64,000 nt of DNA. Source: Bacteroidetes bacterium GWB2_32_14. Its GTDB lineage: Bacteria; Bacteroidota; Bacteroidia; Bacteroidales; UBA12077. The notes beneath the pieces are model-generated. The model had not been told where the DNA came from. It was given only the letters and a program-made list of their open reading frames with translations, and made no database searches. The position numbers and the translations under genes are program-made. The stretch's first letter is position 1. Each line of letters starts with the position of its first letter. Below are positions 15,538 to 30,206 of this stretch, piece after piece. The stretch spans positions 82,267-146,266 of the forward strand of contig MENK01000001.1 of assembly GCA_001768235.1 (NCBI GenBank), given 5' to 3'.

Positions 15538-18357
15538 TTATTCTACAGGTTCAGGATAGTCATCCTTTTTTATTCTTGCCGAACGGTTTAACTTTTTTAC
15601 AATCAGAGTTACCAAAATTGCACCAAAAAGTACCCCGAACACGATGTAAATATACATGGCTGTATAGAGTGCATCGTTGTTCCCAATAACAACGTATCCC
15701 GACCAGAAATAGGGGTGAGCGTGTAATTGATCGGCATTCTGAAGAAACTCAATTTTTGCTTGTTGCAACGATTTTGATTTTGAAAATCCTTTTTTCAAAT
15801 CCTTGTAAAAAACAGTCATCAGTTTTACTCCCGAATTATCTTCGACCGACCATAAAGTCATTATTAACGATGGGCAACCTGCATATATGAATCCACGTGC
15901 TAAGCTCATAACTCCCTCGCCCTTTTGAAGGATTCCGGAACCGCTGTTGCACGAACTCAATACAGCCATCCTGCTTTTTAATTGCAAATTATATACTTCG
16001 TAGGTGTTTAAAAATCCGTCTTCGGTAGTATCGCTTGTTTGCGAAAAAGCCATTTTCGAATACATTGGGCTTTCATCGTTAAGTATGGTGTGCATTGCAA
16101 GGTGAAGAACATCAAATTCAGAGGCCTGTTGTTTAAATGTTTTTTCACTTGCATTTTCGTCTAAGAACAAGTTGCCCCCGATTAGTTTTGAAACGGTTTT
16201 TGCCTCTTCTTTTATTCCTTTTAACGGGTACAGTTTCTCCCTGTACTGTTGTCGTGTTAATATGACTCCCGGTTTCTGATTTTCCTGGTTATCGTATTTG
16301 GGTGCAAATGCAATAAGTTTTTTGGGAGCAATCTTCAGGTTATGTTCATTATCGAAAAGAATGCTTGCCGAATAGGTATAACTAATCGGGTTTTCAAACA
16401 AAAGATAATGCAATTTATTATAACTGATAGTGTTATAATTGCCCTCGTGGCAAAGTAAGGTTTCAAACGGGAGATAAGCCAGCTTTCCATCAGGGATAAT
16501 TATCAGGTGTTTTCCATTAATATAACCTGATACGGGAAGTATTAACTGTTTGTACAAATAGGATGATGATTTAATAAACCGGTTAAAATCTTCAAGATTA
16601 TGCTCCGAAAAGTTATTATCGGTTAAGCTGTTTATTTGCATTTCGAGATTTTCATCAAATCCGGGTTCTTTCTTTACACAAGTAAGCGAATAATCTGTTT
16701 TAGTTATTAAAAATATATAGACATTATCAGTACTTAAACAATATTCTATCACAGCATCTTTTTTCTTGATTCTTTCCTGTATATCTTTTATTTCAAACGA
16801 ATTATTCGAGAACTTTAACCTGAAATAATCAGGGTATTCCTTTTCAATCCTGGCAATAAGTTCGGCATGTTTTTCTTTTAATGTGAATATTTCTTTATTC
16901 CATGCAACAATAAACGTTTCATCAGGTTCTGCTTTTTTCCCCTCTTCATAAATCAGCTCTTCGAAAGTCCAGATACTTTTTTTCAATGAATTTTCGGTGT
17001 TCCGTATTTCCAGGGGTACATTTCCGGTTATCAATGCAGCATTGTTTTGTATTGCTTCGGAAAGTACGGCCGACTTTCCCGATTCAGAAAAACGAAATGC
17101 TTTTTCAAGATATTCTTTATTTCTTGTTGCTTCATATATCTTATAACTTGTTTCGAGTGTATGAATATATGTTTCGTGTTCGTTCTCGGCTAAGAAAAGC
17201 TTGCTCTGCTCACTCAAAAATCCGGAGCGGATTTCCCTGATAACATCTAATGCAAGTTCGCTGGCAGCTAGGCTGGCAGCCAGTGAATTGATGTTTGTTT
17301 TATCCTGTTCCCAGGTAAACTCTAAAGCAATGGATTTGTTTTTTAAGCTTCTTAATAACTGTGTTTTCGAAGAAACGGTACCGAGTTCAGGATTTGAACT
17401 ATAACCGGAGTCATTAAACTCCCTGGAGAGTGAGATTAATGATTTTTGAAAATAACTCAACGACTTTTGATATTCCCCGGTTTTTAAATAATACTCCCCG
17501 ATTTTAGAATATGCTCTTGCTGTTTCGGGATTCTTAATCCCTAAAATTTGTTTGTAAATCGATAATGCTTTTTCAAGGTTTTTTAACGATTCAGAGAGTT
17601 CGTTTTTGGAGTTTTGTAAAAACAGCCCATAGTTTAATTGATGTTGCGCATACCAGATGTTGTTTGTACCAAAATTTTTATGGATATTTTCGAGTGCTTT
17701 TAAATAATAAAATTCAGCTTTATCAGTGTTTCCTTCTTTTTCATACGAAAGGGCAAGGTTCTCGTATGTAGAATAAATAGTTTTATCTTCCTGTTTTAAT
17801 TTCAGACTATTTAAAAAACAAAGAATTGCCTTTTTGTTCTGATTAGTGTTTTTATATAAAATACCAAGATTATTATAAATTGATGCAATCAGCAACTTGT
17901 TTTTCATAGAGTCTGTATTTAGAATATTCAGTGATTCAGTATGATACAATTCTGCTTTTTCATAATCCTGTTGTCTTTCAAAAATTGTTGCCTTGTTTGC
18001 ATATACATATACAAGGCCTGGTGAATTGTGGCTTGATTTGTAAACTTGTTCGGCCTTGTTGTAACTCTGGATTGCTTCATCAAACCTGCCGTTCAATTTT
18101 TTTAGTATTCCAAAACTGATATAGGCCGATGCTAAATATTTTGTGTTGTTATTTTTTTCGAATATTTCAATAGATTTCCCGATATAGTAATAGGCACTAT
18201 CCAGGTTGCCCAGCTTACCGTATTCAATTCCTTTGGTTAAACTGAGAATCCCGTTTTCTAAAGTGTCAATACCAGACTGATTCTTGTAATTTGCTGAATT
18301 GCAGGCATTAATCAGGGTATGAGTTAGTATATAGATTATTAAAACGGATTTTTTCAT
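15538..18357 (-). CDS. Exported TPR-repeat CHAT-domain (caspase-like protease) protein with a C-terminal TM anchor
   Basis: Lipoprotein-like signal ('LINAC'), about 10 TPR-like repeats, and a CHAT catalytic-type region ('VLHLAMHT', 'MAVLSSCNSGSG', 'GFIYAGCPSLIMTLW'). Terminal hydrophobic helix followed by a basic tail. Confidence 0.85.
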   Translation of the reverse strand: MKKSVLIIYILTHTLINACNSANYKNQSGIDTLENGILSLTKGIEYGKLGNLDSAYYYIGKSIEIFEKNNNTKYLASAYISFGILKKLNGRFDEAIQSYNKAEQVYKSSHNSPGLVYVYANKATIFERQQDYEKAELYHTESLNILNTDSMKNKLLIASIYNNLGILYKNTNQNKKAILCFLNSLKLKQEDKTIYSTYENLALSYEKEGNTDKAEFYYLKALENIHKNFGTNNIWYAQHQLNYGLFLQNSKNELSESLKNLEKALSIYKQILGIKNPETARAYSKIGEYYLKTGEYQKSLSYFQKSLISLSREFNDSGYSSNPELGTVSSKTQLLRSLKNKSIALEFTWEQDKTNINSLAASLAASELALDVIREIRSGFLSEQSKLFLAENEHETYIHTLETSYKIYEATRNKEYLEKAFRFSESGKSAVLSEAIQNNAALITGNVPLEIRNTENSLKKSIWTFEELIYEEGKKAEPDETFIVAWNKEIFTLKEKHAELIARIEKEYPDYFRLKFSNNSFEIKDIQERIKKKDAVIEYCLSTDNVYIFLITKTDYSLTCVKKEPGFDENLEMQINSLTDNNFSEHNLEDFNRFIKSSSYLYKQLILPVSGYINGKHLIIIPDGKLAYLPFETLLCHEGNYNTISYNKLHYLLFENPISYTYSASILFDNEHNLKIAPKKLIAFAPKYDNQENQKPGVILTRQQYREKLYPLKGIKEEAKTVSKLIGGNLFLDENASEKTFKQQASEFDVLHLAMHTILNDESPMYSKMAFSQTSDTTEDGFLNTYEVYNLQLKSRMAVLSSCNSGSGILQKGEGVMSLARGFIYAGCPSLIMTLWSVEDNSGVKLMTVFYKDLKKGFSKSKSLQQAKIEFLQNADQLHAHPYFWSGYVVIGNNDALYTAMYIYIVFGVLFGAILVTLIVKKLNRSARIKKDDYPEPVE

Positions 18358-18577
18358 TTAATTCGTCACAAATTTTTTACAATATACTCTAAAATTGATT
18401 AAAAGTTAGTTTTTTTTGCATTTGTAAAACTCAGTAAATCAAAAGTATAAAAATTATTTTAAAAAAAGTTTAAAAATAATTTCAAAAACCGGGTTACCTT
18501 TTTTAAAAAAACTGCACATATAAGTGGAGAGAGAAACATAATTTTTATAAATAATAAAATCTAAAAAAACCAAAACC

Positions 18578-18736
18578 ATGAAAAGTTTAATTCACTTATT
18601 CGGGCAGGATGAACCCAAAAAATCATTCAAACAATTTGCACAACTCGGTACTAACGATATGCTGCTTGTAAAAGGCGGCGATGGTGATCCAATTGATGAT
18701 GATCTTTGGCCCCCGGTTCCACCGATTCAGAAATAA
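18578..18736 (+). CDS. Double-glycine-leader peptide 1, Cys-free acidic/Pro-rich core (52 aa); absent from the ORF track
   Basis: MKSLIHLFGQDEPKKSFKQFAQLGTNDMLLVKGG|DGDPIDDDLWPPVPPIQK. Hydrophobic residues sit at -4, -7, -12 and -15 relative to GG, as in C39-processed leaders. Confidence 0.7.
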   Translation: MKSLIHLFGQDEPKKSFKQFAQLGTNDMLLVKGGDGDPIDDDLWPPVPPIQK

Positions 18737-18767
18737 AGTTATTGATTTTATTAAAAGAACCAAAGCC

Positions 18768-18932
18768 ATGAAAAGTTTAATTCACTTATTCGGGCAGGAT
18801 GAACCCCAAAAATCATTTAAACAATTTGCACAACTTAGTACTAACGATATGTTGCTTGTAAAAGGCGGCGATGGAGAGCCACAAGACGATCTTTGGCCTC
18901 CAATTCCTCCCTTACCACCAACAACAAAATAA
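18768..18932 (+). CDS. Double-glycine-leader peptide 2, tandem paralog (54 aa)
   Basis: MKSLIHLFGQDEPQKSFKQFAQLSTNDMLLVKGG|DGEPQDDLWPPIPPLPPTTK. The leader DNA is almost identical to peptide 1. The ORF-track start at 18681 is read-through of the spacer. Confidence 0.7.
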   Translation: MKSLIHLFGQDEPQKSFKQFAQLSTNDMLLVKGGDGEPQDDLWPPIPPLPPTTK

Positions 18933-18994
18933 TATTTAAAACCTGAAAACCCAAAAGTTATTTTAAATATAAACCGTTCTAAAATTTAAAGTAT

Positions 18995-19747
18995 ATGAAT
19001 AGTTACAACCCTATTGTAGATAAATATATTTACGGGGAACTCGATACCGACGAAATGGTAGCTTTTGAGCAGTTGCTGGCAAACGATTCCCGTGTAAAAA
19101 AGGAGTATCATTTATACAACGATATAAACCATGCCATACTCGAGAAGGATGTTATGGTACTCCGCGGTACTCTCGATGGAATATATAATGAAATTGCCGA
19201 GCCAAAAGAAAAATATATTTCATCGGTTTTCTCTAAACGCAAGATGTATTACGCTGCCGCTTCGCTTGCCATGTTAATGGCTACAGGTGGTATTGTTAAC
19301 CAGTTAGCAAAAAACGACATGGGTAACGAAGCAATTTACAGCAAATATTTTACTCCTTACGAAGTAGCTGTTACTTATCGTTCAGGGAATGAAGAGGCTG
19401 ACAAACTGCTTTTATACGCGCTCCAGAAATACGAAGATGAGGAATATGATAAAGCTGTTGTTCTTTTCGAACAGGTACTCGAAAAACGAAATAATGATAT
19501 GGCTGCTAATTTATATTCAGGTATTTCTCTTATGGAAACTGAAAAATACCAAAAAGCAACACATTCGTTTCAGGCAATTATTGCACAAAATGATAACTTA
19601 TTTACTGAACAGGCAAAATGGTACCTGGCAATGTGTTACATTAAAACAAACAGTGTTTCTAAAGCAGAGAATATTTTAAATGATTTAATTGTTAAAAACA
19701 GCTATTATAAAGATATAGCCAAAAAAGTACTTAAAGAACTGGATTAA
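18995..19747 (+). CDS. Anti-sigma-like single-pass membrane TPR protein (paralog B of 14796..15533), with no adjacent sigma gene
   Basis: Same layout and alignable motifs as paralog A ('DKYIYGELDTDEMVAFEQLL'; TM 'YYAAASLAMLMATGGIV'; 'WYLAMCYIKTNSVSKAE'). Confidence 0.65.
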   Translation: MNSYNPIVDKYIYGELDTDEMVAFEQLLANDSRVKKEYHLYNDINHAILEKDVMVLRGTLDGIYNEIAEPKEKYISSVFSKRKMYYAAASLAMLMATGGIVNQLAKNDMGNEAIYSKYFTPYEVAVTYRSGNEEADKLLLYALQKYEDEEYDKAVVLFEQVLEKRNNDMAANLYSGISLMETEKYQKATHSFQAIIAQNDNLFTEQAKWYLAMCYIKTNSVSKAENILNDLIVKNSYYKDIAKKVLKELD

Positions 19748-19765
19748 CAATAAAATTTAAAAACA

Positions 19766-20488
19766 ATGAAACCACAATCTGGCACCATTAGTCGGGATGA
19801 CATTAAAGAAAGTAATGTTTCCGATAGCACCAGGAGTAGTTTTCTTTCGCATATATCGCATGGTATAAGAACGCCTTTAAACTCCATCATGGGTTTTTCC
19901 AATTTATTATTAGACAGGCAGCTTGTTGATGGTAAGCAAATTGAATATGCAAGGCGCATAGTTTCCAGCAGTAATGTATTGTTAAATTTTGTAGAGAACC
20001 TGATCGATTTGTCGCAATTCGATTCAAATAAATACAAGGTTACCCAACAGCAAGTTGATTTAAATTCATTGCTATGGAAAATAGCCGAAGATTTTATTAT
20101 TCAGAAAATTGATAAGGATTATTCTGAAATTGAACTTTCGGTGAATATCCATTCAGGAATCGAAGATTTTTTAATAACTACCGATTATGTATTGCTGAAA
20201 AAATCGTTAAACAGGCTTGTTGAGTTAGTTGCTGCTATTTATAAAACCGGGAAAATCGAGTTGGGATATTGCATTGAAAACAACCATGTACTTAAAATAT
20301 ATGTTCGTGAAAATAGCGACGAATATTTTAAACAGCAGGGCAACCTGGAGTTTAGGGATGATAACGGGGAAGATATGTTTAATGATTTCAATTTCGAAGT
20401 GCTTGTTCGTTCGATAGATCTTATTGGCGGGCGGGTTTGTACTGACTCAATTATGAATGAATATTATATCGAATTGCCAATAAATTGA
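19766..20488 (+). CDS. Soluble histidine-kinase-like protein: intact HisKA H-box, degenerate ATPase domain
   Basis: 'FLSHISHGIRTPLNSIMGFSNLL' is a good H-box. I could find no N-box (NxxxNAxK), DxGxG or GxGxGL in the C-terminal half. No TM helix. Confidence 0.65.
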   Translation: MKPQSGTISRDDIKESNVSDSTRSSFLSHISHGIRTPLNSIMGFSNLLLDRQLVDGKQIEYARRIVSSSNVLLNFVENLIDLSQFDSNKYKVTQQQVDLNSLLWKIAEDFIIQKIDKDYSEIELSVNIHSGIEDFLITTDYVLLKKSLNRLVELVAAIYKTGKIELGYCIENNHVLKIYVRENSDEYFKQQGNLEFRDDNGEDMFNDFNFEVLVRSIDLIGGRVCTDSIMNEYYIELPIN

Positions 20489-20547
20489 AAACAAAGATTT
20501 AAAACAATTATATAAAATAAATTAGAAAATAATAATACTAAAATACC

Positions 20548-20901
20548 ATGACAACATTTAATATATACTTACCAACAAAAAACGGGAAAATAGGAGTAGA
20601 GCTTAAACATATTCTTTACTTCGAATCCCTGGGCGACACCAATTTTATGGTGTTAAACAATGATGAAAAAATCGAGTTGTTAATGGCCGTTGATGAAATT
20701 GAGCAACTGCTGTGTTACCGTGGATTTTTCAGGTTTACACAAAACTACCTTGTAAACCTTAAAGCTGTTCAGCTTATATTCCCTGGCGATGCGTCGAAAG
20801 TGGTTCTCGAAAATGGTAAAGAAATTTTTGCACCGCAAAGCCGCCGTGAAGAACTTTTTAGAGAACTCGAGAAAGTGTACCAGGTTCACGCGACTATATA
20901 A
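20548..20901 (+). CDS. Stand-alone LytTR DNA-binding domain protein (no receiver domain)
   Basis: 117 aa. LytTR-like 'ILYFESLGDTNFMV...FFRFTQNYLVNLKAV'. The usual H-[RK]-S triad is replaced by T-Q-N. Confidence 0.7.
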   Translation: MTTFNIYLPTKNGKIGVELKHILYFESLGDTNFMVLNNDEKIELLMAVDEIEQLLCYRGFFRFTQNYLVNLKAVQLIFPGDASKVVLENGKEIFAPQSRREELFRELEKVYQVHATI

Positions 20902-20930
20902 TACAAGTTCTAAATAGTTTGTGTTTTTAA

Positions 20931-20969
20931 GTTCGGCTTGGTTTCCTTAACGGGAATACCTAGCCGAAC
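20931..20969 (+). terminator. Hairpin between the two LytTR genes
   Basis: GTTCGGCT...AGCCGAAC 8-bp stem with a long, partly paired loop. No clear T-tract. Confidence 0.35.
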
Positions 20970-21006
20970 AATTTACATTTAGTCTTGATTCTTAAAAATA
21001 AAATGT

Positions 21007-21366
21007 ATGATTGATTTAAATGGAAAAATATACATCCAATCCGAAGATGAAAAAATAATCCAAATTGAAGAAATAAAAAATATTGTTTATTTAGAAGCCG
21101 ACAATAGAAAAACGAAAGTTTATTGCTTCAACGGGAATCAGTATTTAATTAATAAATGCCTGAGTTACATAGAAGAAAGGATTACAAATAAAAATTTCTT
21201 TAAGATCCATAAATCATTTATCATTAATGTTGATTATTTAAAAAGTGTTAACTACAAAGGTGAAAAAAATGTAGTTCTTGAAAATGATATTAAAATTCAA
21301 ATAGCTTGTCGAAAATATCCTGAATTCAAGAGATTTTTGAAAGAGAAATTTTCGTTTTTTCAGTAA
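21007..21366 (+). CDS. Stand-alone LytTR DNA-binding domain protein (no receiver domain)
   Basis: 119 aa. Canonical 'IVYLEADNRKTKVY...FFKIHKSFIINVDYLKSV'. Confidence 0.8.
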   Translation: MIDLNGKIYIQSEDEKIIQIEEIKNIVYLEADNRKTKVYCFNGNQYLINKCLSYIEERITNKNFFKIHKSFIINVDYLKSVNYKGEKNVVLENDIKIQIACRKYPEFKRFLKEKFSFFQ

Positions 21367-21667
21367 ATGGTACTGTAATAGATTCAGACTAAATATATTC
21401 CCTTATTCGTTTTAACGATTGTTATAAAAAAGTTAACAAGTTTTAGTCAAAAATTTAATTGCGAAAATGCAAACTTTAGTTACGATAAAGTAATAAAATG
21501 CAACGATCATGTATTTGAACGGTTAGAACTAAATAATGAGGATTTTGATATAAGAATATTATGTCTAATTTAGGTTGTTTGAGTTCATTAAAAAAGCTCG
21601 GGTAGTTTATCGGTAAAGCAGGTATGAAAGAAAACTATGAAAATTAATTTAAAATAAAAGGCACGTT

Positions 21668-23287
21668 TTGAAAGAATCATTGATTTATATACTGAAAAGA
21701 ATTCTGAAAGAGAACAGGATTAAAGTTGACGAAAAAGAGCTGGAGTTTCAACTATTAAGCCATCCGTCGTACCCCAGCTTACATTCAGTTACGGGTGTTT
21801 TAGATCATTTTGCAATTAGTAACCTCGCGTTGGAAGTTCCTAAAAATATTGAAACTTTAAACCAATTACCCAGGTTTTTTCTTGCTTATATTAAAGATAT
21901 AAATAACGATGATTTAGTTTTGGTTACGAATAAAGATTCTAAAATATGTTTAATATATAATGAAAAAAGAACGGAAACTTTATCGACAGATAAATTTTTA
22001 AATGCATGGACAGGAGTAATTGTTGGAGTTGAAAAAGATAACGAAGTTGTTCCAAAAACGAACCCATTAGATTTAACCTTATTTACTTCATTTTTAACGA
22101 TAGTTTTATTAATTATCTTGTTTTTCTCTTTTAAACCGGATTTATTTCAGTCCCTGCATTTCTTATTATCATTTGCCGGATTAGCAATTAGTATAGTTAT
22201 TGTAAAACACGAGCTGGGTTTTCATTCTAAAATCGCAGATAAATTTTGTTCTGGAAATATTGATAAAATAAATTGTGATGATGTATTGAAATCGAAAGCA
22301 GCAAATTTTTTCGGAGTTTTTAAATTAAGTGATGTTGGAATTATTTATTTTTTATCCCTAACAGTATCCTGGCTATTATTATCAATGAATAAAGCAGGAT
22401 ATGATTCTTTAATTGTTATTTCAGTTTTAGCTATACCTTTTACTTTTTATTCAATAATTTATCAATATTTTGTTGTAAAAAAATGGTGTTTACTATGTTT
22501 AAGTGTAGTTTTAATATTGTGGTTGCAGGCAACTTCTCTTTTTATTGTTGATATAGATATTACCAGTTTATCTTTTACCTATAATAGTTTACTATTAGTT
22601 GCTTTTAGCTTCTTGCTCACAACCGTTTTTTGGCAATTTGTATTGCCTAAAATGAAAAAAGAAAAGGAATTAAGTATATTAAAAATTGAACATTACAAGT
22701 TTAAACGAAACTACAGCATATTTAATGCGCTTATATCAAGGTATGTTCAAATGAATACAGCAATCAATGGTACTAATGAGATTGTATTTGGGGATATGAA
22801 TAACCTTTTTAAAATTACAATTATTACGAACCCATTGTGCAGTTTTTGTAAAGGAGCACACGAACTGGTCGAAAACCTGTTAAAAAGCGGGAATAAGAAT
22901 ATTCAAATAACCATAAGATTTAATGTAAACCTGAATCGTGATGCTACTGATAATAAAATAGCCCTGAGATTATTAGAACTATACAATGTATCTGGTATAG
23001 AACAATGTTTAAACGCGATGCATGATATTTATGGTAAACTGTTACCCAAGAATTGGCTGGAAAAATGGGGCGAAGCCGGTAACCCCCAATATATTGAAAT
23101 ATTAAGGGCAGAAAAAGAGTGGTGTAAGCAAAACAATATCAACTTCACTCCTGAAATACTAATAAACGGGAGACCACTTCCAAAAGAATATGAAAGAAAT
23201 GATTTATTGTACTTTGTAGAAGATGTAGTTGAAAATGAGCAACAAAAAATTGAAAGCTCAATTTCAGAATTAGAATATACATCATAA
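21668..23287 (+). CDS. Three-domain membrane protein: catalytic-Cys-less C39-like domain, VKOR domain, thioredoxin/DsbA-like domain
   Basis: The N-terminal ~125 aa resemble a C39 fold, but 'SHPSYPSL' sits where the exporter has 'MDCGPSCL'. VKOR loop Cys pair 'CSGNIDKINC' and membrane CxxC 'WCLLC'. C-terminal 'NPLCSFCKGAH' CxxC. TTG start. Confidence 0.7.
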   Translation: MKESLIYILKRILKENRIKVDEKELEFQLLSHPSYPSLHSVTGVLDHFAISNLALEVPKNIETLNQLPRFFLAYIKDINNDDLVLVTNKDSKICLIYNEKRTETLSTDKFLNAWTGVIVGVEKDNEVVPKTNPLDLTLFTSFLTIVLLIILFFSFKPDLFQSLHFLLSFAGLAISIVIVKHELGFHSKIADKFCSGNIDKINCDDVLKSKAANFFGVFKLSDVGIIYFLSLTVSWLLLSMNKAGYDSLIVISVLAIPFTFYSIIYQYFVVKKWCLLCLSVVLILWLQATSLFIVDIDITSLSFTYNSLLLVAFSFLLTTVFWQFVLPKMKKEKELSILKIEHYKFKRNYSIFNALISRYVQMNTAINGTNEIVFGDMNNLFKITIITNPLCSFCKGAHELVENLLKSGNKNIQITIRFNVNLNRDATDNKIALRLLELYNVSGIEQCLNAMHDIYGKLLPKNWLEKWGEAGNPQYIEILRAEKEWCKQNNINFTPEILINGRPLPKEYERNDLLYFVEDVVENEQQKIESSISELEYTS

Positions 23288-23303
23288 AAGACCTTTTTCC
23301 CGG

Positions 23304-23401
23304 GGGGAAGGTTTATAAAGAAATTCTATTGCGAAGAATAAACCGAAACTTGACGGTTTAAAAAAGTTCAAGATTTTCTTTAACTAAAAATTCTTAATAA
23401 A
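23304..23401 (+). promoter_or_regulatory. Cassette upstream element, copy 1 (conserved promoter/operator-like repeat)
   Basis: Contains GCGAAGAATAAACCGAAACTTGACGG (23331-23356) and TTCAAG (23367-23372). TTGACGG lies 52 nt before the ATG. Confidence 0.55.
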
Positions 23402-23572
23402 ATGAAAGATTTAAAAAATTTAAAAGGTGCTAAAGTTCTTGGCAAAACAGAACAAAAAGCTATTAAGGGCGGAGTAATAGTTATTTGTGAAGGATGTCCG
23501 CCAATATCCGATTGTTGTGTAAATAACATTTGTGGCAAAATAGGTATAGGTGGAAAATGTTATGCCATTTAG
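23402..23572 (+). CDS. GG-leader Cys-rich bacteriocin-like precursor A (56 aa, 6 Cys in the core); absent from the ORF track
   Basis: MKDLKNLKGAKVLGKTEQKAIKGG|VIVICEGCPPISDCCVNNICGKIGIGGKCYAI. Confidence 0.75.
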   Translation: MKDLKNLKGAKVLGKTEQKAIKGGVIVICEGCPPISDCCVNNICGKIGIGGKCYAI

Positions 23573-23588
23573 TTTTATTTTATTCAGG

Positions 23589-23631
23589 TTAACTAGGAAT
23601 TATCTGGATTTTTCAGATAACTTCTAGTTAA
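23589..23631 (+). terminator. Hairpin after precursor A
   Basis: TTAACTAGGAATTATCTG / CAGATAACTTCTAGTTAA, 16 of 18 positions complementary. Confidence 0.5.
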
Positions 23632-23809
23632 TTATTTAGGTGGAATCCACAGTTTGCCTGACTTTAAAAAAGCAGTTGAAAATCAGGGTTTTATGCACGT
23701 GACATGCAGTTGTAACAGCTAAATGTTATTTTGAAGTGCTATGTAATATTTGCGATTTTTTTATTCTGCATACAAGTCAGAAATTGAATGCATACCACGA
23801 AATAATTTA

Positions 23810-23908
23810 CTCAAGGAAGATTTAAAAAGAAATTCATTCGCGAAGAATAAACCGAAACTTGACGGTTTTAAAATGCTCAAGATATTTTAACCTAAAATTT
23901 CTAATAAA
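23810..23908 (+). promoter_or_regulatory. Cassette upstream element, copy 2
   Basis: Differs from copy 3 at about five positions in 99 nt by my count. TTGACGG at 23859-23865 (50 nt before the ATG); CTCAAG at 23876-23881. Confidence 0.6.
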
Positions 23909-24055
23909 ATGAAAGATTTAAAGAAAATGAAAGGTGTTAAGATTCTTAGCAAAAAGGAGCAAAAAGCTATTAAAGGCGGATATGCTTGCAGAGAACCTGA
24001 AATGTGGTGCCCTCCCGGATCGATTTGTGTTGATGGGCTTTGTCGTCCAGTATAA
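23909..24055 (+). CDS. GG-leader Cys-rich bacteriocin-like precursor B (48 aa, 4 Cys)
   Basis: MKDLKKMKGVKILSKKEQKAIKGG|YACREPEMWCPPGSICVDGLCRPV (C-x6-C-x5-C-x4-C). Confidence 0.75.
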   Translation: MKDLKKMKGVKILSKKEQKAIKGGYACREPEMWCPPGSICVDGLCRPV

Positions 24056-24081
24056 TAGCAGATACGATTATTAACTAATTA

Positions 24082-24115
24082 AGAAGTTGTCTGAAAAAAT
24101 ATTCTGGCAACTTCT
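24082..24115 (+). terminator. Hairpin after precursor B
   Basis: AGAAGTTG ... CAACTTCT stem. Confidence 0.4.
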
Positions 24116-24198
24116 CTTAAAAATCATTACCTCCCCCTTGATATTTCCCCGGGGGAATAAAAAAGTTTAACATCAGTAATTGAATAAAAACTATTTTT

Positions 24199-24297
24199 CT
24201 AAAGGAAGATTTAAAAAGAAATTCTCTCGCGAAGAATAAACCGAAACTTGACGGTTTTAAAATGCTCAAGATATTTTAACCTAAAATTCTTAATAAA
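24199..24297 (+). promoter_or_regulatory. Cassette upstream element, copy 3
   Basis: GCGAAGAATAAACCGAAACTTGACGG at 24229-24254 and CTCAAG at 24265-24270. TTGACGG lies 50 nt before the ATG. Confidence 0.6.
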
Positions 24298-24453
24298 ATG
24301 AAAGATTTAAAAAAATTAAAAGGTGCTAAAATTCTTAGCAAAAAGGAGCAAATCTCAATTAAAGGTGGAAAAATTTATTGTGGTGATGGAAAACCTTGTC
24401 CTGTTGGTACAATATGTAATGGGACATGGTGTGAACCATATATTGAGGCATAG
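24298..24453 (+). CDS. GG-leader Cys-rich bacteriocin-like precursor C (51 aa, 4 Cys)
   Basis: MKDLKKLKGAKILSKKEQISIKGG|KIYCGDGKPCPVGTICNGTWCEPYIEA (C-x5-C-x5-C-x4-C). Confidence 0.75.
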   Translation: MKDLKKLKGAKILSKKEQISIKGGKIYCGDGKPCPVGTICNGTWCEPYIEA

Positions 24454-24471
24454 TATCAAATTTTAAATATC

Positions 24472-24503
24472 GAGAGAAAATCTTTGGTTTTCTCTCATTT
24501 TTA
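24472..24503 (+). terminator. Hairpin plus T-tract after precursor C
   Basis: GAGAGAAAA / TTTTCTCTC stem followed by ATTTTT. The sequence is related to the hairpin after precursor D. Confidence 0.6.
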
Positions 24504-24604
24504 ATTAAATAAGTTTAGATCGCTTTAAGTTAGAAATAATTAAGAAAGTTGTAAAATACTTACAATAAGTTGTGTTTAATTTTTAACTCAATGATAGCAT
24601 ATAT

Positions 24605-25540
24605 ATGGATATAATTAATAGCATCATAGATTTTGTTAAGGATAACTGGACTACAATATTTAGTGGTATTGGTACAACTATTTTAATTGGAATTCTCGGA
24701 TATATTGGTAAGCGTATGAAAAAAGGAAAAAAAATATCCCAAGAAGAAAAAAAAGTTATAAATCAAAGTGTGAATACTGGAGATAACTCAAAAGTAATTC
24801 AAAGTGCTGAAAACATCATAATTGACAATTCAGATGTTAAAATAAATAATGATTCAAAATCAACAGCCACAGAGCAAACAATTATTGTGCAAGCTGGTAG
24901 AGATGCTATATTGAATGTTAAACAAAGTCCGCCTGACATAAAATTAGTACGAGTAACAGTTGAAGATGATGAAACACAAAGAGGGCTGAAGCAAAAGCTG
25001 AATGTAATAATGAAAAATAATGGAGATAAAAGTGTATTTCTTTTAAGTGGTCATCTAGAGGTTATTGGTTGTGAAGACATTGTAAATCCAAATCATTTTG
25101 GAATGCATTATAAACTTAGTTTTGCTGATTGGAATTATGATGTTGATATTAATAGTGATAACCCTAGCTTTAAGGGACAACATATAATTGAACCAGATGA
25201 AGTAATTAACTTTAATGTCATAGTCGGTAGAAATGAAGGAGGCCTTAATTTATCAGTCTATAAATGTTTATTAAAGTTTAAATTTGATGAACACAAGGAT
25301 TTAGAATGTGGTCCATTTTTCTTGCTTATTTCTGGACCAACTGTTTGGGATGGAGGTTTTCAAGCCTGTGGACCAACTCCTGAACAATGGGGCAGAGCGC
25401 AAGTAGATAACATCAAACGTTTAGACAGTATAGGATATGATTATCGTCATCAAATTCATCCAGATTCAAGAAAATACCTTGAAGAAATAGACCCACATAT
25501 CTTTGAAAAACAAAAAACTAAACACAACACGCGGTCATAA
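24605..25540 (+). CDS. Hypothetical N-terminally membrane-anchored protein (311 aa) interrupting the cassette array
   Basis: Long clean ORF. TM helix 'IFSGIGTTILIGILGYIG', then a low-complexity Asn/Ser/Asp linker and a ~200-aa globular domain. I do not recognise any family motif. Confidence 0.55.
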   Translation: MDIINSIIDFVKDNWTTIFSGIGTTILIGILGYIGKRMKKGKKISQEEKKVINQSVNTGDNSKVIQSAENIIIDNSDVKINNDSKSTATEQTIIVQAGRDAILNVKQSPPDIKLVRVTVEDDETQRGLKQKLNVIMKNNGDKSVFLLSGHLEVIGCEDIVNPNHFGMHYKLSFADWNYDVDINSDNPSFKGQHIIEPDEVINFNVIVGRNEGGLNLSVYKCLLKFKFDEHKDLECGPFFLLISGPTVWDGGFQACGPTPEQWGRAQVDNIKRLDSIGYDYRHQIHPDSRKYLEEIDPHIFEKQKTKHNTRS

Positions 25541-25660
25541 AACATGCCGGTTTCAGTCGGTTTTCGAGCGTTTCGTCCCGCCTCGTAGGTTTGTAACGGG
25601 GGGTACAGACGCAGCCCCGCAATCCGGCACGTTTCATACCGCCAACGTTAGAGTATAGCA
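25541..25660. other. GC-rich, non-coding, structure-prone island of unknown nature
   Basis: Composition jumps sharply relative to the AT-rich surroundings. Complementary segments: ATGCCGG (25544-25550) / CCGGCA (25624-29), and CGGGG...CCCCG around 25597-25619. No ORF. Confidence 0.3.
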
Positions 25661-25697
25661 TGACGGGAAATTAAACTTTACAAAAATGACTGAAGCT

Positions 25698-25750
25698 TTG
25701 ACGGTCAACTAAATGCTCAAGGCAAATTATTAATTAAATAGTAACTTATT
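25698..25750 (+). promoter_or_regulatory. Cassette upstream element, truncated copy 4 (core only)
   Basis: TTGACGG at 25698-25704 (53 nt before the ATG) and CTCAAG at 25716-25721. The distal GCGAAGAATAAACCGAAAC part is absent. Confidence 0.5.
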
Positions 25751-25924
25751 ATGAAAGAATTAAAAAATTTAAAAGGTGCTAAAGTTCTTAGCAAAAAAGA
25801 GCAAATCTCAATTAAAGGCGGATTAGAAATTTGTGATATTTTTGGGCATGATTGCCATGAAGGTTATATTTGCAAATTAGTGAATTCAACCACGGGATGG
25901 TGCATTCCTGTAATCGAAGATTAA
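25751..25924 (+). CDS. GG-leader Cys-rich bacteriocin-like precursor D (57 aa, 4 Cys)
   Basis: MKELKNLKGAKVLSKKEQISIKGG|LEICDIFGHDCHEGYICKLVNSTTGWCIPVIED. Confidence 0.75.
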   Translation: MKELKNLKGAKVLSKKEQISIKGGLEICDIFGHDCHEGYICKLVNSTTGWCIPVIED

Positions 25925-25934
25925 TGTCTTGAAT

Positions 25935-25970
25935 AATGAGAGGGAACTTTTTGGTTTTCTCTCATTATTT
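25935..25970 (+). terminator. Hairpin after precursor D
   Basis: AATGAGAG / CTCTCATT stem. Shares 'tttggttttctctcatt' with the hairpin after precursor C. Confidence 0.55.
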
Positions 25971-26175
25971 AAAATTTAGAATTTAGAATAACTCATTTCT
26001 GCCCAGGATTTTGCCATGGGGCTAATCATTAAATAAAATAGTTTTAAATACAACAGTATCAATACAGAAGCAAATCGATTATAAAAAATCTTTGTAAATA
26101 AATGCAATTTATTTTCTGAATTATTAAAATTAATCCTAAGTCTGTTCAAGAGTTTTTAATATCTTTAAACCAAAA

Positions 26176-28392
26176 ATGCCTTTCCCCTTTTACCAACAGT
26201 TAGATGCCATGGATTGCGGCCCTTCGTGCCTGCGCATGATTGCGAAACATTATGGCAAGTCGTTTTCCTTACAAACCTTGCGCGATAAAAGCTATATTAC
26301 CCGCGAGGGTGTTTCTATGCTGGGTATTAGCGATGCAGCAGAAGCAATTGGATTTCGCAGCATGGGTGTTCGAATTACTTTCGAGCAGTTACTAAACGAA
26401 GCACCAATGCCTTGTATAGCACATTGGAAGCAAAATCACTTTGTGGTGGTTTATAAAATCAAACAAATTCTCCCGTCCCCCTTTAGAAAAGGAGGAGTAT
26501 TTGTACATGTGGCCGATCCGGCACGGGGATTGATAAAATTTACCAAGGAAGAGTTTATGTCGGGTTGGGCTAACACGAAAGAAGCGGGCGAAGATAAAGG
26601 TTTGTGCCTATTGCTGGAAACAACTCCCGACTTTTACAAGTCCGATAATGAAAAATTAAACAAATCGGGTTTCAAATTTTTGTTTTCGTATTTACGACCG
26701 TATAAAAAACTGATTATTCAGCTGGTATTAGGTTTATTGCTGGGTAGTTTATTGCAACTTATTTTTCCATTTTTAACCCAGAGCATTGTCGATAAAGGTA
26801 TCAATAACCAGGATTTGAGCTTTGTAACACTCATTATTATTGCACAACTGGTACTTATTTTTTCGCGAACTATAGTTGAATTTATTCGGAGCTGGATTTT
26901 ATTGCACCTGGGTACACGAATCAATATTTCGTTAATATCCGATTTTCTGATTAAATTAATGAAGTTACCGGTTTCCTTTTTCGATACTAAAATGATTGGT
27001 GACCTTATTCAACGAATTGGCGACCATAAACGTATCGAAAACTTTTTAACATCATCTACATTAAATATCCTGTTCTCATTTGTTAACCTGATCATATTTG
27101 GCATTGTTCTTCTTACATACAGTGTAAACATATTTCTTATTTTCCTTATAGGAAGTACATTATACACGCTTTGGATTTACCTGTTCATGAAAAAACGACG
27201 CGATTTGGATAATCGGAAGTTTGCCCAACTTTCGAGTAATCAAAGCAATGTAATTCAGTTGATTACCGGAATGCAGGAAATAAAACTGAACAACTGTGAA
27301 AAGCAAAAACGATGGGAGTGGGAGAGTATCCAGGCCAAGTTGTTCAAAGTAAATATGGATAGCTTATCATTGAGTCAGTACCAGCAGGCTGGCGGGGTTT
27401 TTATTAACGAAATAAAAAACATTGCAATCACGTTTATTGCAGCCAAATCAGTTATCGACGGACAAATGACTCTGGGTATGATGCTGGCAGTGCAATACAT
27501 CATTGGCCAGTTAAACAGCCCGATTAATCAAATGATTGGATTCTTGCAGGCTACCCAGGATGCGAAAATAAGCCTGGAACGCTTAGGTGAGATTCATCAA
27601 CGCGACAATGAAGAGTCGGACGAAACGCCTAAAATAAGTATTCTGCCTGAACACCGTGATTTAAATATTGATTTAATATCATTCCAGTACGAGGGGCCTC
27701 ATTCGCCTTTTGTGCTCGAAAATGTTGAATTAAATATCCCCGAGAAAAAAATTACAGCTGTAGTAGGTACCAGCGGTAGTGGTAAAACCACACTAATCAA
27801 GCTTTTACTTGGATTTTACGAGCCACAGAAAGGCAAAATAAAACTGGGTGATATTTACCTGAACAATATCAGTAATCGTATGTGGCGCGATAAGTGTGGT
27901 GTTGTTATGCAGGATGGATTTATTTTCTCCGATTCAATAGCAAATAATATTTCTGTTTCAGACGAGTTTCCCGATCGCGAAAAATTACTAAATGCCGTAA
28001 AGGTGGCCAATATACAGGATTTTATTGAATCTCTGCCTTTGGGCTATAATACAAAAATCGGACAGAATGGTGTTGGATTGAGCCAGGGGCAGAAACAACG
28101 AATACTCATTGCCCGTGCGGTGTATAAAAACCCTGAATTTATTTTCCTTGATGAGGCTACCAATGCACTCGACGCAAATAATGAACGTGTTATCATGGAA
28201 AACCTCGATCAGTTTTTTAAAGGGAAAACAGTTGTAGTTGTTGCACACCGATTGAGTACTGTAAAAAATGCCGACCAGATTGTAGTTTTGGAGCAAGGGA
28301 AAATAGTAGAAAGAGGTACCCATGCAGAGTTAACCAGGAAGAAAGGTGCTTATTACGAGTTGGTGAGGAATCAGTTGGAGTTAGGGAATTAA
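26176..28392 (+). CDS. Peptidase-C39-domain ABC transporter (double-glycine leader cleavage and export)
   Basis: N-terminal C39 with a candidate catalytic set (Q in 'YQQLD', C in 'MDCGPSC', H in 'QNHFVVV', D in 'VADPA'). Six-TM ABC membrane domain. Walker A 'GTSGSGKTT', signature 'LSQGQKQR', Walker B 'IFLDEATNALD'. Confidence 0.9.
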   Translation: MPFPFYQQLDAMDCGPSCLRMIAKHYGKSFSLQTLRDKSYITREGVSMLGISDAAEAIGFRSMGVRITFEQLLNEAPMPCIAHWKQNHFVVVYKIKQILPSPFRKGGVFVHVADPARGLIKFTKEEFMSGWANTKEAGEDKGLCLLLETTPDFYKSDNEKLNKSGFKFLFSYLRPYKKLIIQLVLGLLLGSLLQLIFPFLTQSIVDKGINNQDLSFVTLIIIAQLVLIFSRTIVEFIRSWILLHLGTRINISLISDFLIKLMKLPVSFFDTKMIGDLIQRIGDHKRIENFLTSSTLNILFSFVNLIIFGIVLLTYSVNIFLIFLIGSTLYTLWIYLFMKKRRDLDNRKFAQLSSNQSNVIQLITGMQEIKLNNCEKQKRWEWESIQAKLFKVNMDSLSLSQYQQAGGVFINEIKNIAITFIAAKSVIDGQMTLGMMLAVQYIIGQLNSPINQMIGFLQATQDAKISLERLGEIHQRDNEESDETPKISILPEHRDLNIDLISFQYEGPHSPFVLENVELNIPEKKITAVVGTSGSGKTTLIKLLLGFYEPQKGKIKLGDIYLNNISNRMWRDKCGVVMQDGFIFSDSIANNISVSDEFPDREKLLNAVKVANIQDFIESLPLGYNTKIGQNGVGLSQGQKQRILIARAVYKNPEFIFLDEATNALDANNERVIMENLDQFFKGKTVVVVAHRLSTVKNADQIVVLEQGKIVERGTHAELTRKKGAYYELVRNQLELGN

Positions 28393-28490
28393 AAAAGTTG
28401 CAGCAGTATGTAGCAGCAGGAAGCGGAAGTATTTAGTTAAGGTTAGTTGGTAGTATAAAAATTATAACTAAAATTTTAATATAATAGACA

Positions 28491-28862
28491 ATGGAGTTTG
28501 GGTTTAAACAGTTAAAAGTTTACCAAAAGGCATATCAGCTCGCAAAAGAGATATTTGAAATCAGCAAATCATTTCCTATAGAAGAGAAGTATTCTTTAAC
28601 AGATCAGATAAGAAGATCATCAAGAGCTGTTTGTGCTAATATTGCGGAAGCATATCGAAAAAGACGATATCCTAAACACTTTACATGTAAAATTACTGAC
28701 TCAGACGCTGAAGCTAGTGAGACTGTTGTTTGGCTTAATTTTGCAATGGATTCTAATTACATTTCTAAAGAAATTCAAATGCGATTAGAAAATGAATATG
28801 AAGAAGTTGAAAGAATGTTAGGTTCAATGGCCGATCATCCTGAAAAATTTTTACCAAAATAA
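28491..28862 (+). CDS. Four-helix-bundle protein ('23S rRNA intervening-sequence protein' family)
   Basis: 'FKQLKVYQKAYQLAKEIFEISKSFP..EKYSLTDQIRRSSRAVCANIAEAY' is the typical family signature. Wedged between the exporter and HlyD genes. Confidence 0.8.
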   Translation: MEFGFKQLKVYQKAYQLAKEIFEISKSFPIEEKYSLTDQIRRSSRAVCANIAEAYRKRRYPKHFTCKITDSDAEASETVVWLNFAMDSNYISKEIQMRLENEYEEVERMLGSMADHPEKFLPK

Positions 28863-28910
28863 ATTATACTGCATACTGCAACTGTCAACTGCAGCTTAAT
28901 AATAAATAGT

Positions 28911-30206
28911 ATGGAAGAACAAAATAAAATTGAACTTCGCTCGAATGATGTACAAGAAATTCTCAGCCGTCCACCAAAATGGATTGTGCGATGGGGTATT
29001 ACAATAATTCTGATTGTTGTTGTTATCTTGATTGCAGGGAGTTGGTTTTTTAAATATCCCGACATTATTACTGCAAAAATAGTATTGACTACAGAAAACC
29101 CACCATCTCCCGTAGTTGCTAAAACATCGGGCAAAATTCAGAACTTGTTTGTTACCGATAAGCAGGAAGTAAAAAAGAATCAGGTATTGGCAGTTATCGA
29201 GAATCCCGCAAATTTCAATGATATAAGTATAATCATTGAAAAATTAAACAACTTTAATTCAGATTCTTATTCCAATGAAATTTTTTCAGGGAGTTATAAT
29301 CTTGGCACTATTCAATCCTATTATGCTGATTTTATCAGAAATCTTGATGAATACCAAAAACTTGTTCAGATGGATTATCACCAGAAAAAAATCAATCTCT
29401 TGAAAAAAGAAATTATACAATACACAAAATACCTCGCAAATTTAAAAGTGCAAAACAACCTGCAAAAAAGAGAATACGAATTAATAGTGAACCAATTCTA
29501 TCGTGATTCAACTTTACACGATCAGCAGTTAATATCTGAGGCTGAATTTGAGAAATCGAAGTCATCCTTATTGTCAAAACAGTTTAGTCTTGAACAATCA
29601 AACATTGCACTTACCAATACCGAAATTCAGGTTCAAAATATTGAGCAGAGCATAGCAGAACTTGAGCTGCAGGAAGAAAAACAATTGTCGGATAAAAAGC
29701 TGCTAATCAAACAGTCGTGTGAAAATTTAATTGCAGCTATCGATTCCTGGAAATACCAGTATGTTTTAATTGCATCAACCGATGGTAAAGTTACATTTAA
29801 CAAGTTCTGGAATGAGAATCAATCGGTAAAATCAGGAGAAACAGTACTTACAATAATTCCGGATAATGAGGGTGAAATAATTGGTAAGGTTCAATTGTCG
29901 TTTCAGGGTGCCGGGAAAGTAAAAGAAGGACAACAGGTAAATATTCGATTCGATAATTATCCATATATGGAATTTGGAATGGTTAAAGGAGTGGTAAAAT
30001 CAATATCGCAAGTTCCCGATAATGATTATTATACTGCCGAAATACAGTTGCCCGGCGGATTAATTACATTTTACAATGAAAAACTCGATTTTAAGCAGGA
30101 AATGCAAGGTACAGCAGAGATTGTAACTGAAGATTTCCGGTTATTGGAACGTATTGTAAGGCCATTGCGGTACGTTTTAAATAAAAATACTAAGTTTGGG
30201 GGTTAA
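28911..30206 (+). CDS. HlyD-family membrane fusion/accessory protein for the peptide exporter
   Basis: N-terminal TM helix, long coiled-coil middle and a C-terminal beta-barrel-like region, immediately downstream of the C39 ABC transporter. Confidence 0.8.
   Translation: MEEQNKIELRSNDVQEILSRPPKWIVRWGITIILIVVVILIAGSWFFKYPDIITAKIVLTTENPPSPVVAKTSGKIQNLFVTDKQEVKKNQVLAVIENPANFNDISIIIEKLNNFNSDSYSNEIFSGSYNLGTIQSYYADFIRNLDEYQKLVQMDYHQKKINLLKKEIIQYTKYLANLKVQNNLQKREYELIVNQFYRDSTLHDQQLISEAEFEKSKSSLLSKQFSLEQSNIALTNTEIQVQNIEQSIAELELQEEKQLSDKKLLIKQSCENLIAAIDSWKYQYVLIASTDGKVTFNKFWNENQSVKSGETVLTIIPDNEGEIIGKVQLSFQGAGKVKEGQQVNIRFDNYPYMEFGMVKGVVKSISQVPDNDYYTAEIQLPGGLITFYNEKLDFKQEMQGTAEIVTEDFRLLERIVRPLRYVLNKNTKFGG

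Follow-up and report, generated by a model that had tools for sequence, protein, structure and literature searches.

A Bacteroidota fusion of C39-like, VKOR and DsbA-like domains predicted to oxidise cysteine-rich GG-leader peptides on the cytoplasmic side of the membrane

The 64,000-nucleotide stretch of DNA analysed here, referred to as the window (positions 82,267 to 146,266 of contig MENK01000001.1, assembly GCA_001768235.1, from Bacteroidetes bacterium GWB2_32_14), encodes a 539-residue protein in which a C39-like domain, a VKOR-type membrane core and a DsbA-like thioredoxin-fold domain are joined. Its gene stands first in an operon-like array, directly upstream of genes for cysteine-rich peptides with double-glycine (GG) leaders. 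On balance, the sequence and predicted structure favour the reading that this protein is a substrate-dedicated disulfide-forming enzyme, the entire catalytic face of which would lie in the cytoplasm, where it would oxidise leader-tagged precursors prior to export. The enzyme family is built of known parts, is widespread and is uncharacterised; the new point is the predicted inward topology of the VKOR/DsbA-like machine. An earlier reading of the same DNA, made from the letters and open reading frames (ORFs) and called here the original prediction, had proposed a fusion that recognises the leader and oxidises the core.

Domain architecture and conservation

The architecture of a C39-like, a VKOR and a DsbA-like domain is almost beyond doubt. 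It had been claimed in the original prediction, and the check by hidden Markov models (HMMs) and structure prediction proposed there was run and confirmed the three domains: Pfam, AlphaFold2 and Foldseek agree on them, and all of the quoted motifs were located as described. Pfam matches the protein to VKOR at 7e-17 (62.2 bits against a cut-off of 27.5; residues 165-288) and to Peptidase_C39 at 22.2 bits against a cut-off of 22 (residues 2-125). The match to Thioredoxin_4 (PF13462), at 19.1 bits, falls under the cut-off of 23.2, and many homologs have a precomputed PF13462 match; Pfam finds no ABC domain in the fusion protein. An AlphaFold2 model of the whole protein, built on 57 homologs, has a mean predicted local distance difference test score (pLDDT) of 84. 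The product is identical to a deposited hypothetical protein (P0001) of the metagenome-assembled genome 'Bacteroidetes bacterium GWC2_33_15'. NCBIfam holds no specific model for the fusion protein or for the peptides of the window, the sole signal being a weak leader_Chryseo match. No literature describing the combined architecture was found, and public annotation gives the component domains only.

Conservation was assessed in an alignment of 57 homologs with 42-69% identity. Both motifs on which the VKOR assignment had been founded (a C-x8-C loop pair and CLLC) were recovered, as was the CSFC motif of the proposed DsbA/thioredoxin domain. All six redox cysteines (C194, C203, C274, C277, C391 and C394) are invariant in the alignment, and so is T494-P495 at the cis-Pro position of the thioredoxin fold. 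The C-terminal domain is a thioredoxin fold with a helical insert, and Foldseek matches it to the DsbA-like oxidoreductases ScsC, BdbD, DsbA and MdbA (TMt up to 0.74). A housekeeping VKOR, which would have served as a same-phylum control, was found neither in the window nor in any of the related loci fetched for this work.

For the N-terminal domain, an AlphaFold2 model of residues 1-135 alone (pLDDT 83.8, pTM 0.75) is matched by Foldseek to the peptidase domains of PCAT1, ComA and LahT150 as well as to the C39-like domain of HlyB (3zua), with TM-scores of 0.67-0.73 (0.69 for HlyB) and a probability of 1.00. The sequence SHPSYPSL, said in the original prediction to replace the catalytic MDCGPSCL, occupies residues 31-38 and does indeed lack the nucleophile: the position is S34 in the window protein and holds S (40), T (10), Y (5) or D (2) in the family, with Cys in none of the 57. 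The family was further aligned by hhalign with the C39 domains of 53 neighbouring peptidase-containing ABC transporters (PCATs). At a probability of 38%, and hence with low confidence, the catalytic His falls on variable position 82 (E/D/G/H/N; D82 in the window protein) and the catalytic Asp on variable position 98 (N/D/S/G/E). BLASTP of the N-domain against the peptidase domain of the window's own PCAT found nothing. The only Cys of the domain, correctly described as lying far downstream, is C94, and its column is variable among the homologs. Since the catalytic Cys and His are lost, the N-domain is, to judge from its sequence, a degenerate C39 fold incapable of cysteine protease activity. 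It is, by the same alignment, strongly constrained around the former active-site loop: Q28 (the equivalent of the oxyanion-hole Gln), H32, P33, P36, S37 and H47 never vary in the family, and the mean column identity of the domain is 58%.

Family spread and linkage to GG-leader peptides

Homologs of the fusion protein form more than 612 clusters at 90% identity, and at least 269 fusion loci were counted in species-representative genomes. A profile of the N-domain retrieves 921 representatives at E<=1e-10, of which the best matches are nearly all proteins of 525-550 residues whose residues 1-135 form the domain. The named sources belong without exception to the Bacteroidota (Bacteroidales, Marinilabiliales and Flavobacteriales).

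The enzyme is very probably dedicated to Cys-rich GG-leader peptides. The four even-Cys GG-leader peptides that had been noticed directly downstream of it in the window carry 6, 4, 4 and 4 core Cys. The survey of co-occurrence that had been proposed as a check was carried out on 80 fetched related loci, using an HMM of the leader, built by iteration from the four peptides of the window, and without Cys content as a criterion. It recovered 379 non-redundant leader-matching peptides in 65 of the 80 loci, all of them on the strand of the enzyme gene, and the first peptide starts at a median of 136 nt downstream (first-pass search, 38 loci). Every core has at least two Cys and the number is even in 358 of the 379 (4 in 166, 6 in 160, 8 in 28 and 2 in 4 peptides; odd in 21, zero in none), with a parity p of 3e-80. 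Some Flavobacteriaceae loci have up to 21 such peptide genes. The leaders are conserved along all of their 23-24 residues with the canonical L-12, E-8, I-4, G-2, G-1 pattern, and carry 2-4 bits per position over the full length, compared with 0.3-0.5 bits in the hypervariable core. Of the 80 loci, 52-53 encode a PCAT whose C39 domain is intact and 50-51 an HlyD-family adaptor.

Membrane topology

Hydropathy and the AlphaFold2 model give six membrane helices (residues 136-155, 161-180, 220-238, 247-267, 273-294 and 306-326), the hydrophobicity of which is conserved across the family. Pfam aligns helix 1 of VKOR with the second of the six, so the first (TM-A) is an added helix; the N-domain, the Cys loop, the helix-4 CXXC and the DsbA-like domain therefore share one side of the membrane.

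The distribution of lysine and arginine (K+R) was compared with that of 106 canonical VKOR-thioredoxin (VKOR-Trx) fusions, mostly cyanobacterial. This control set was gathered by a homolog search seeded with P0121, a truncated JGI protein that was the sole match to a Synechococcus PDB fragment query and is 77% identical to part of the crystallised enzyme; P0122, a member of the set, has 98% identity to P0121. The loop pattern of the fusion family is the mirror image of that of the canonical proteins (Table 1). In the family, the functional side carries a mean of 15.0 K+R against 1.3 in the three opposite loops, and the smallest difference in any single member is 10. The window's own PCAT conforms to the positive-inside rule. 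No N-terminal signal-like hydrophobic segment was found by hydropathy in the fusion family, and translocation of the 135-residue N-domain is unlikely because it carries about 16 K+R. From the mirrored bias the functional side is predicted to be cytoplasmic, and it is thus quite likely that the whole redox face of the enzyme points into the cytoplasm. The periplasmic location expected for the thioredoxin domain in the original prediction is contradicted by the extra helix and the mirrored charges, both of which predict the cytoplasmic side.

Table 1. Mean K+R per segment in canonical VKOR-Trx proteins and in the fusion family
Segment	Canonical VKOR-Trx (n=106)	Fusion family (n=57)
N-flank	4.03	0.56
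Cys loop	1.77	5.51
TM2-3	2.87	0.30
TM3-4	0.33	2.16
TM4-5	1.91	0.47
Post-TM5	1.03	4.18

Proposed mechanism

The removal of GG leaders by PCATs takes place on the cytoplasmic face of the membrane, and export through PCAT and HlyD bypasses the periplasm. A leader-reading domain can therefore work only in the cytoplasm, and a periplasmic oxidase would rarely meet the peptides; with an inward orientation the architecture becomes self-consistent. A cytoplasmic thioredoxin domain had been listed as a refutation of the original prediction. It instead removes an inconsistency in that model, since a leader-docking domain is useful only where the exporter cuts the leader.

In the proposed scheme, precursors consisting of a conserved 23-24-residue GG leader and a hypervariable core with 4, 6 or 8 Cys would be made in the cytoplasm, where the C39-fold domain, devoid of catalytic Cys and His, would grip the leader without cleaving it. 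The tethered DsbA-like domain (CxxC, cis-Pro TP) would then oxidise the core cysteines and be re-oxidised by the VKOR loop pair C194/C203 and in turn by CLLC (274-277), with the electrons ending on membrane menaquinone. The cross-linked precursor, its leader still attached, would be handed to the neighbouring PCAT, the active C39 domain of which would remove the leader, and export with HlyD would bypass the periplasm. PCAT-type transporters export ring-containing lanthipeptides, and cross-linked cargo should thus be no problem in principle. We infer that the leader is bound and the core oxidised, in what order the events follow and how the protein truly lies in the membrane; binding of the leader by the N-domain is given slightly better than even chances.

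Alternative explanations and points against the proposal

In a conventional orientation, the VKOR site and the DsbA-like and C39-like domains would all be periplasmic, oxidation would occur during or after export, and the C39-like domain might bind, say, the mature peptide, HlyD or the exporter. This was the expectation of the original prediction, and the usual place of DsbA-like domains is outside the cytoplasm. Nearly all VKORs known so far face outward; inward paralogs are listed for no more than a few Crenarchaea, among them Aeropyrum pernix (PMC13486548). According to Hibender 2017 and Hatahet & Ruddock 2013, as these are cited in PMC13486548, the inward-facing VKOR of A. pernix is documented and engineered inverted VKOR enzymes work. 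A conventional orientation is nevertheless improbable for the fusion family, where it would put the 15.0 K+R outside and the 1.3 inside, opposite to the 106 canonical proteins, and would require a charged N-domain without a signal sequence to cross the membrane. So placed, the enzyme would also rarely encounter its substrate, as the leaders are cut at the cytoplasmic face and export bypasses the periplasm. A role in self-protection or regulation, in which the enzyme keeps the producer's peptides inactive by a change of redox state or senses redox, is more improbable still. The absence of any obvious immunity gene in the window locus speaks for it, and bacteroidetocin loci are likewise without recognised immunity genes (PMC6671954). 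Nevertheless, the gene leads an operon-like array upstream of the peptides and co-occurs with the exporter throughout the family, and VKOR chemistry is oxidative. Moreover, the thiol oxidoreductase of the bacteroidetocin system gave no protection and was needed for toxin activity (PMC6671954).

An alternative with a minor but appreciable probability accepts an enzyme that faces the cytoplasm and is dedicated to the peptides, but denies that the C39-like domain binds leaders. The domain would then be a PCAT-derived relic ('peptidase domain + TM1') with inversion of the VKOR as its main effect, or else a module docking onto the PCAT or another partner, and substrate choice would be achieved through proximity or through the DsbA-like domain. 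The Foldseek alignment of the N-domain plus helices with the N-terminus of PCAT1 speaks for this alternative, as does the very weak similarity to active C39 domains. Against it stand the mean column identity of 58% and the invariant residues, the equivalent of the oxyanion-hole Gln among them, that cluster at the former active-site loop; from these a retained binding function can be argued. The leaders are, in addition, conserved over 23-24 residues, whereas the bacteroidetocin leaders of loci without the fusion have 15.

Several points weigh against a leader-guided oxidase facing the cytoplasm. Its orientation is derived from the positive-inside rule and helix counting, and in this AT-rich genome Lys-rich proteins inflate the K counts beside soluble domains, although Lys-richness leaves the K/R-poor opposite loops unexplained. 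The cytoplasm is reducing, so that disulfides made there need protection or immediate export. At the strict threshold 15 of the 80 loci have no peptide, some being truncated or having diverged leaders. In sequence, the N-domain resembles C39 only marginally (22.2 bits, an hhalign probability of 38% and no BLASTP match), and the assignment of the fold accordingly rests on Pfam at its threshold and on the predicted structure. Further, the C39-like domain of HlyB engages its substrate through a surface away from the former active site, and homology is thus silent on where, or whether, a GG leader binds the N-domain. The broader proposal of a widespread, hitherto undescribed Bacteroidota pathway, in which an inward VKOR/DsbA machine installs cytoplasmic disulfides and a degenerate C39 domain reads the GG leader as a guide, falls, taken as a whole, a little short of even odds.

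The locus in the window

The features of the fusion gene and of the peptide and export genes are collected in Table 2.

Table 2. Features of the fusion gene and of the neighbouring peptide and export genes (positions in the window)
Feature	Position	Strand	Basis or remark
Whole gene (C39-like domain, extra TM helix, VKOR core, DsbA-like domain)	21668..23287	+	539 aa, TTG start
C39-fold domain, aa 1-125	21668..22042	+	Pfam C39, conservation, hhalign, Foldseek
Extra transmembrane helix TM-A, aa 136-155	22073..22132	+	Hydropathy; model helix 136-153; Pfam VKOR begins at aa 165
VKOR core and fifth helix, aa 161-326 (TM-B to TM-F)	22148..22645	+	Pfam VKOR 7e-17; match to Synechococcus VKOR 4nv6
VKOR loop pair C194-x8-C203 (CSGNIDKINC, aa 194-203)	22247..22276	+	Both Cys invariant
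VKOR CXXC (CLLC), aa 274-277	22487..22498	+	Start of TM-E; preceded by conserved KK; C274/C277 invariant
DsbA-like thioredoxin-fold domain, aa ~360-525	22745..23242	+	Pfam, conservation, Foldseek
CSFC of the DsbA-like domain, aa 391-394	22838..22849	+	C391/C394 invariant
GG-leader peptide 1	23402..23572	+	6 core Cys
GG-leader peptide 2	23909..24055	+	4 core Cys
GG-leader peptide 3	24298..24453	+	4 core Cys
GG-leader peptide 4	25751..25924	+	4 core Cys
PCAT, ABC exporter with active C39 peptidase domain	26176..28392	+	MDCGPSC motif; C39 match 1.5e-31
HlyD-family periplasmic adaptor	28911..30206	+	

The peptide genes show signs of cassette duplication. An element of about 72 nt precedes the first three of them (23306-23377, 23815-23886 and 24204-24275; 88-89% identical) and is likely a shared promoter or operator; the element and the leader-coding repeats (23379-23494, 23886-24001, 24275-24390 and 25728-25843) make up a cassette that has been duplicated. 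Peptide genes 3 and 4 are separated by an ORF of 311 residues (24605-25540, + strand) with an N-terminal hydrophobic helix, for which no Pfam or NCBIfam match and no homolog in the 80 related loci were found; this ORF may be a candidate for immunity or else an insertion unrelated to the locus. A four-helix-bundle protein of the 23S rRNA-intervening-sequence or bAvd-like type (1.6e-32), seen in two other loci only, is encoded at 28491-28862 (+ strand), after the PCAT gene and before that of HlyD.

Directly upstream of the enzyme gene, 19766-20488 encodes a HisKA-only protein of 240 residues, and 20548-20901 and 21007-21366 encode stand-alone LytTR DNA-binding proteins of 117 and 119 residues (all + strand). 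No receiver domains were detected in this set, which recalls the kinase/LytTR regulators of Gram-positive bacteriocin loci. Farther upstream are a 939-residue protein with TPR and CHAT domains (15538-18357, - strand; CHAT 1e-56), with homologs in 17 of 81 surveyed loci, and a 250-residue TPR protein (18995-19747, + strand), with homologs in 13 of 81. Their distribution suggests a conserved regulatory or processing module tied to the peptide system. Two Cys-free peptides (18578-18736 and 18768-18932, + strand) carry another, longer GG leader, MKSLIHLFGQDEP.KSFKQFAQL.TNDMLLVKGG, followed by a core that is acidic and rich in Pro (DGD..DDLWPP.PP); peptides of the same type occur in two related loci, at 6655-6789 of L002 and 6278-6427 of L004. 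They may be pheromone-like or a second cargo class of the same exporter.

Among the related loci, Cys-rich GG peptides with diverged leaders lie upstream of the enzyme gene in L044 (8441-8641; Flavobacteriaceae bacterium RhTr2) and L068 (6314-6556; uncultured Aquimarina). In these two and in Aquimarina loci the enzyme gene directly adjoins that of the PCAT.

Significance

Disulfide formation in bacteria is regarded as extracytoplasmic. If the proposal is true, the fusion enzyme would be the first bacterial case of a naturally inverted VKOR and would reveal a way for Gram-negative cells to cross-link peptides that leave by a one-step exporter and are never periplasmic. Disulfide formation would become a leader-dependent tailoring step, extending the enzyme logic of ribosomally synthesised and post-translationally modified peptides (RiPPs), with libraries of hypervariable, knotted peptides, encoded by as many as 21 genes in one locus, feeding a PCAT exporter. 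The enzyme would also provide a compact, genetically encoded tool for the cytoplasmic production of disulfide-rich peptides. The hundreds of hypervariable Cys-rich peptides of marine Flavobacteriaceae and anaerobic Bacteroidales are likely an unexplored antimicrobial or signalling class.

Comparison with known systems

With the bacterial VKOR-Trx fusions (Synechococcus VKOR, PDB 3KP9/4NV2/4NV6, and cyanobacterial and other homologs), the window protein shares the four-helix core, the loop Cys pair, the helix-4 CXXC, a fifth helix leading to a thioredoxin-fold domain and, by prediction, a relay that runs from the Trx CxxC through the loop Cys and the CXXC to quinone. In contrast to these outward-facing fusions, it has an additional N-terminal helix and C39-like domain and a mirrored charge distribution, and is predicted to face inward; its partner is not a small Trx but a DsbA-like domain that carries a helical insert, and its gene sits in peptide-exporter loci. 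Like the N-domain, the C39-like domain of HlyB (3ZUA) has a C39 fold that lacks the catalytic Cys and precedes a membrane domain; it is cytoplasmic and is known to bind its substrate uncut. It differs in being part of an ABC transporter and in recognising RTX proteins, whereas the domain in the window is fused to an oxidoreductase and has lost the His too. The leader-recognition domains of RiPP biosynthesis (RRE/PqqD-like) follow the same logic of a leader-binding module on a modifying enzyme, acting on a variable core in the cytoplasm before PCAT cleavage, although they have an unrelated fold, and here the modification would amount to no more than disulfide formation. Thiol-disulfide oxidoreductases dedicated to bacteriocins are represented by PedC (pediocin) and BdbA/BdbB (sublancin).

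ApVKORi of Aeropyrum pernix has its catalytic cysteines on the cytoplasmic side (PMC13486548), the orientation predicted here. The protein, from a crenarchaeon that is a hyperthermophile, is believed to act in disulfide formation in the cytoplasm generally; neither a C39-like domain nor a link to GG-leader peptides is known for it.

The bacteroidetocin system also has a redox enzyme gene beside genes for Cys-containing GG-leader peptides and a PCAT. Its loci encode a 'thiol oxidoreductase' that is required for toxin activity in Bacteroides and has been proposed to form the disulfides of the peptide, Bacteroides lacking a general Dsb machinery (Coyne 2019; PMC6671954). The sequence of Bd-A was taken from the supplement of Coyne 2019, and bacteroidetocin A loci were fetched from gut metagenomes (L090, for example). 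Identity of the fusion enzyme with this oxidoreductase was considered and rejected: the latter is a 171-residue, single-helix AhpC/TlpA-like thioredoxin without a VKOR or C39-like domain, and is an analogue from another family. No protein of the bacteroidetocin-type five-helix membrane (5-TM) kind was recognised among the ORFs in 17000-29000 of the window, where no dedicated search for one was made. The leaders of bacteroidetocins (class IIf) have 15 residues, and those of the window family 23-24. In the bacteroidetocin A locus of a human gut metagenome (L090, 7239-7754), the oxidoreductase has one positive residue before its single helix and three after it (NPKRTKQ); by this charge pattern, its thioredoxin domain might also be cytoplasmic.

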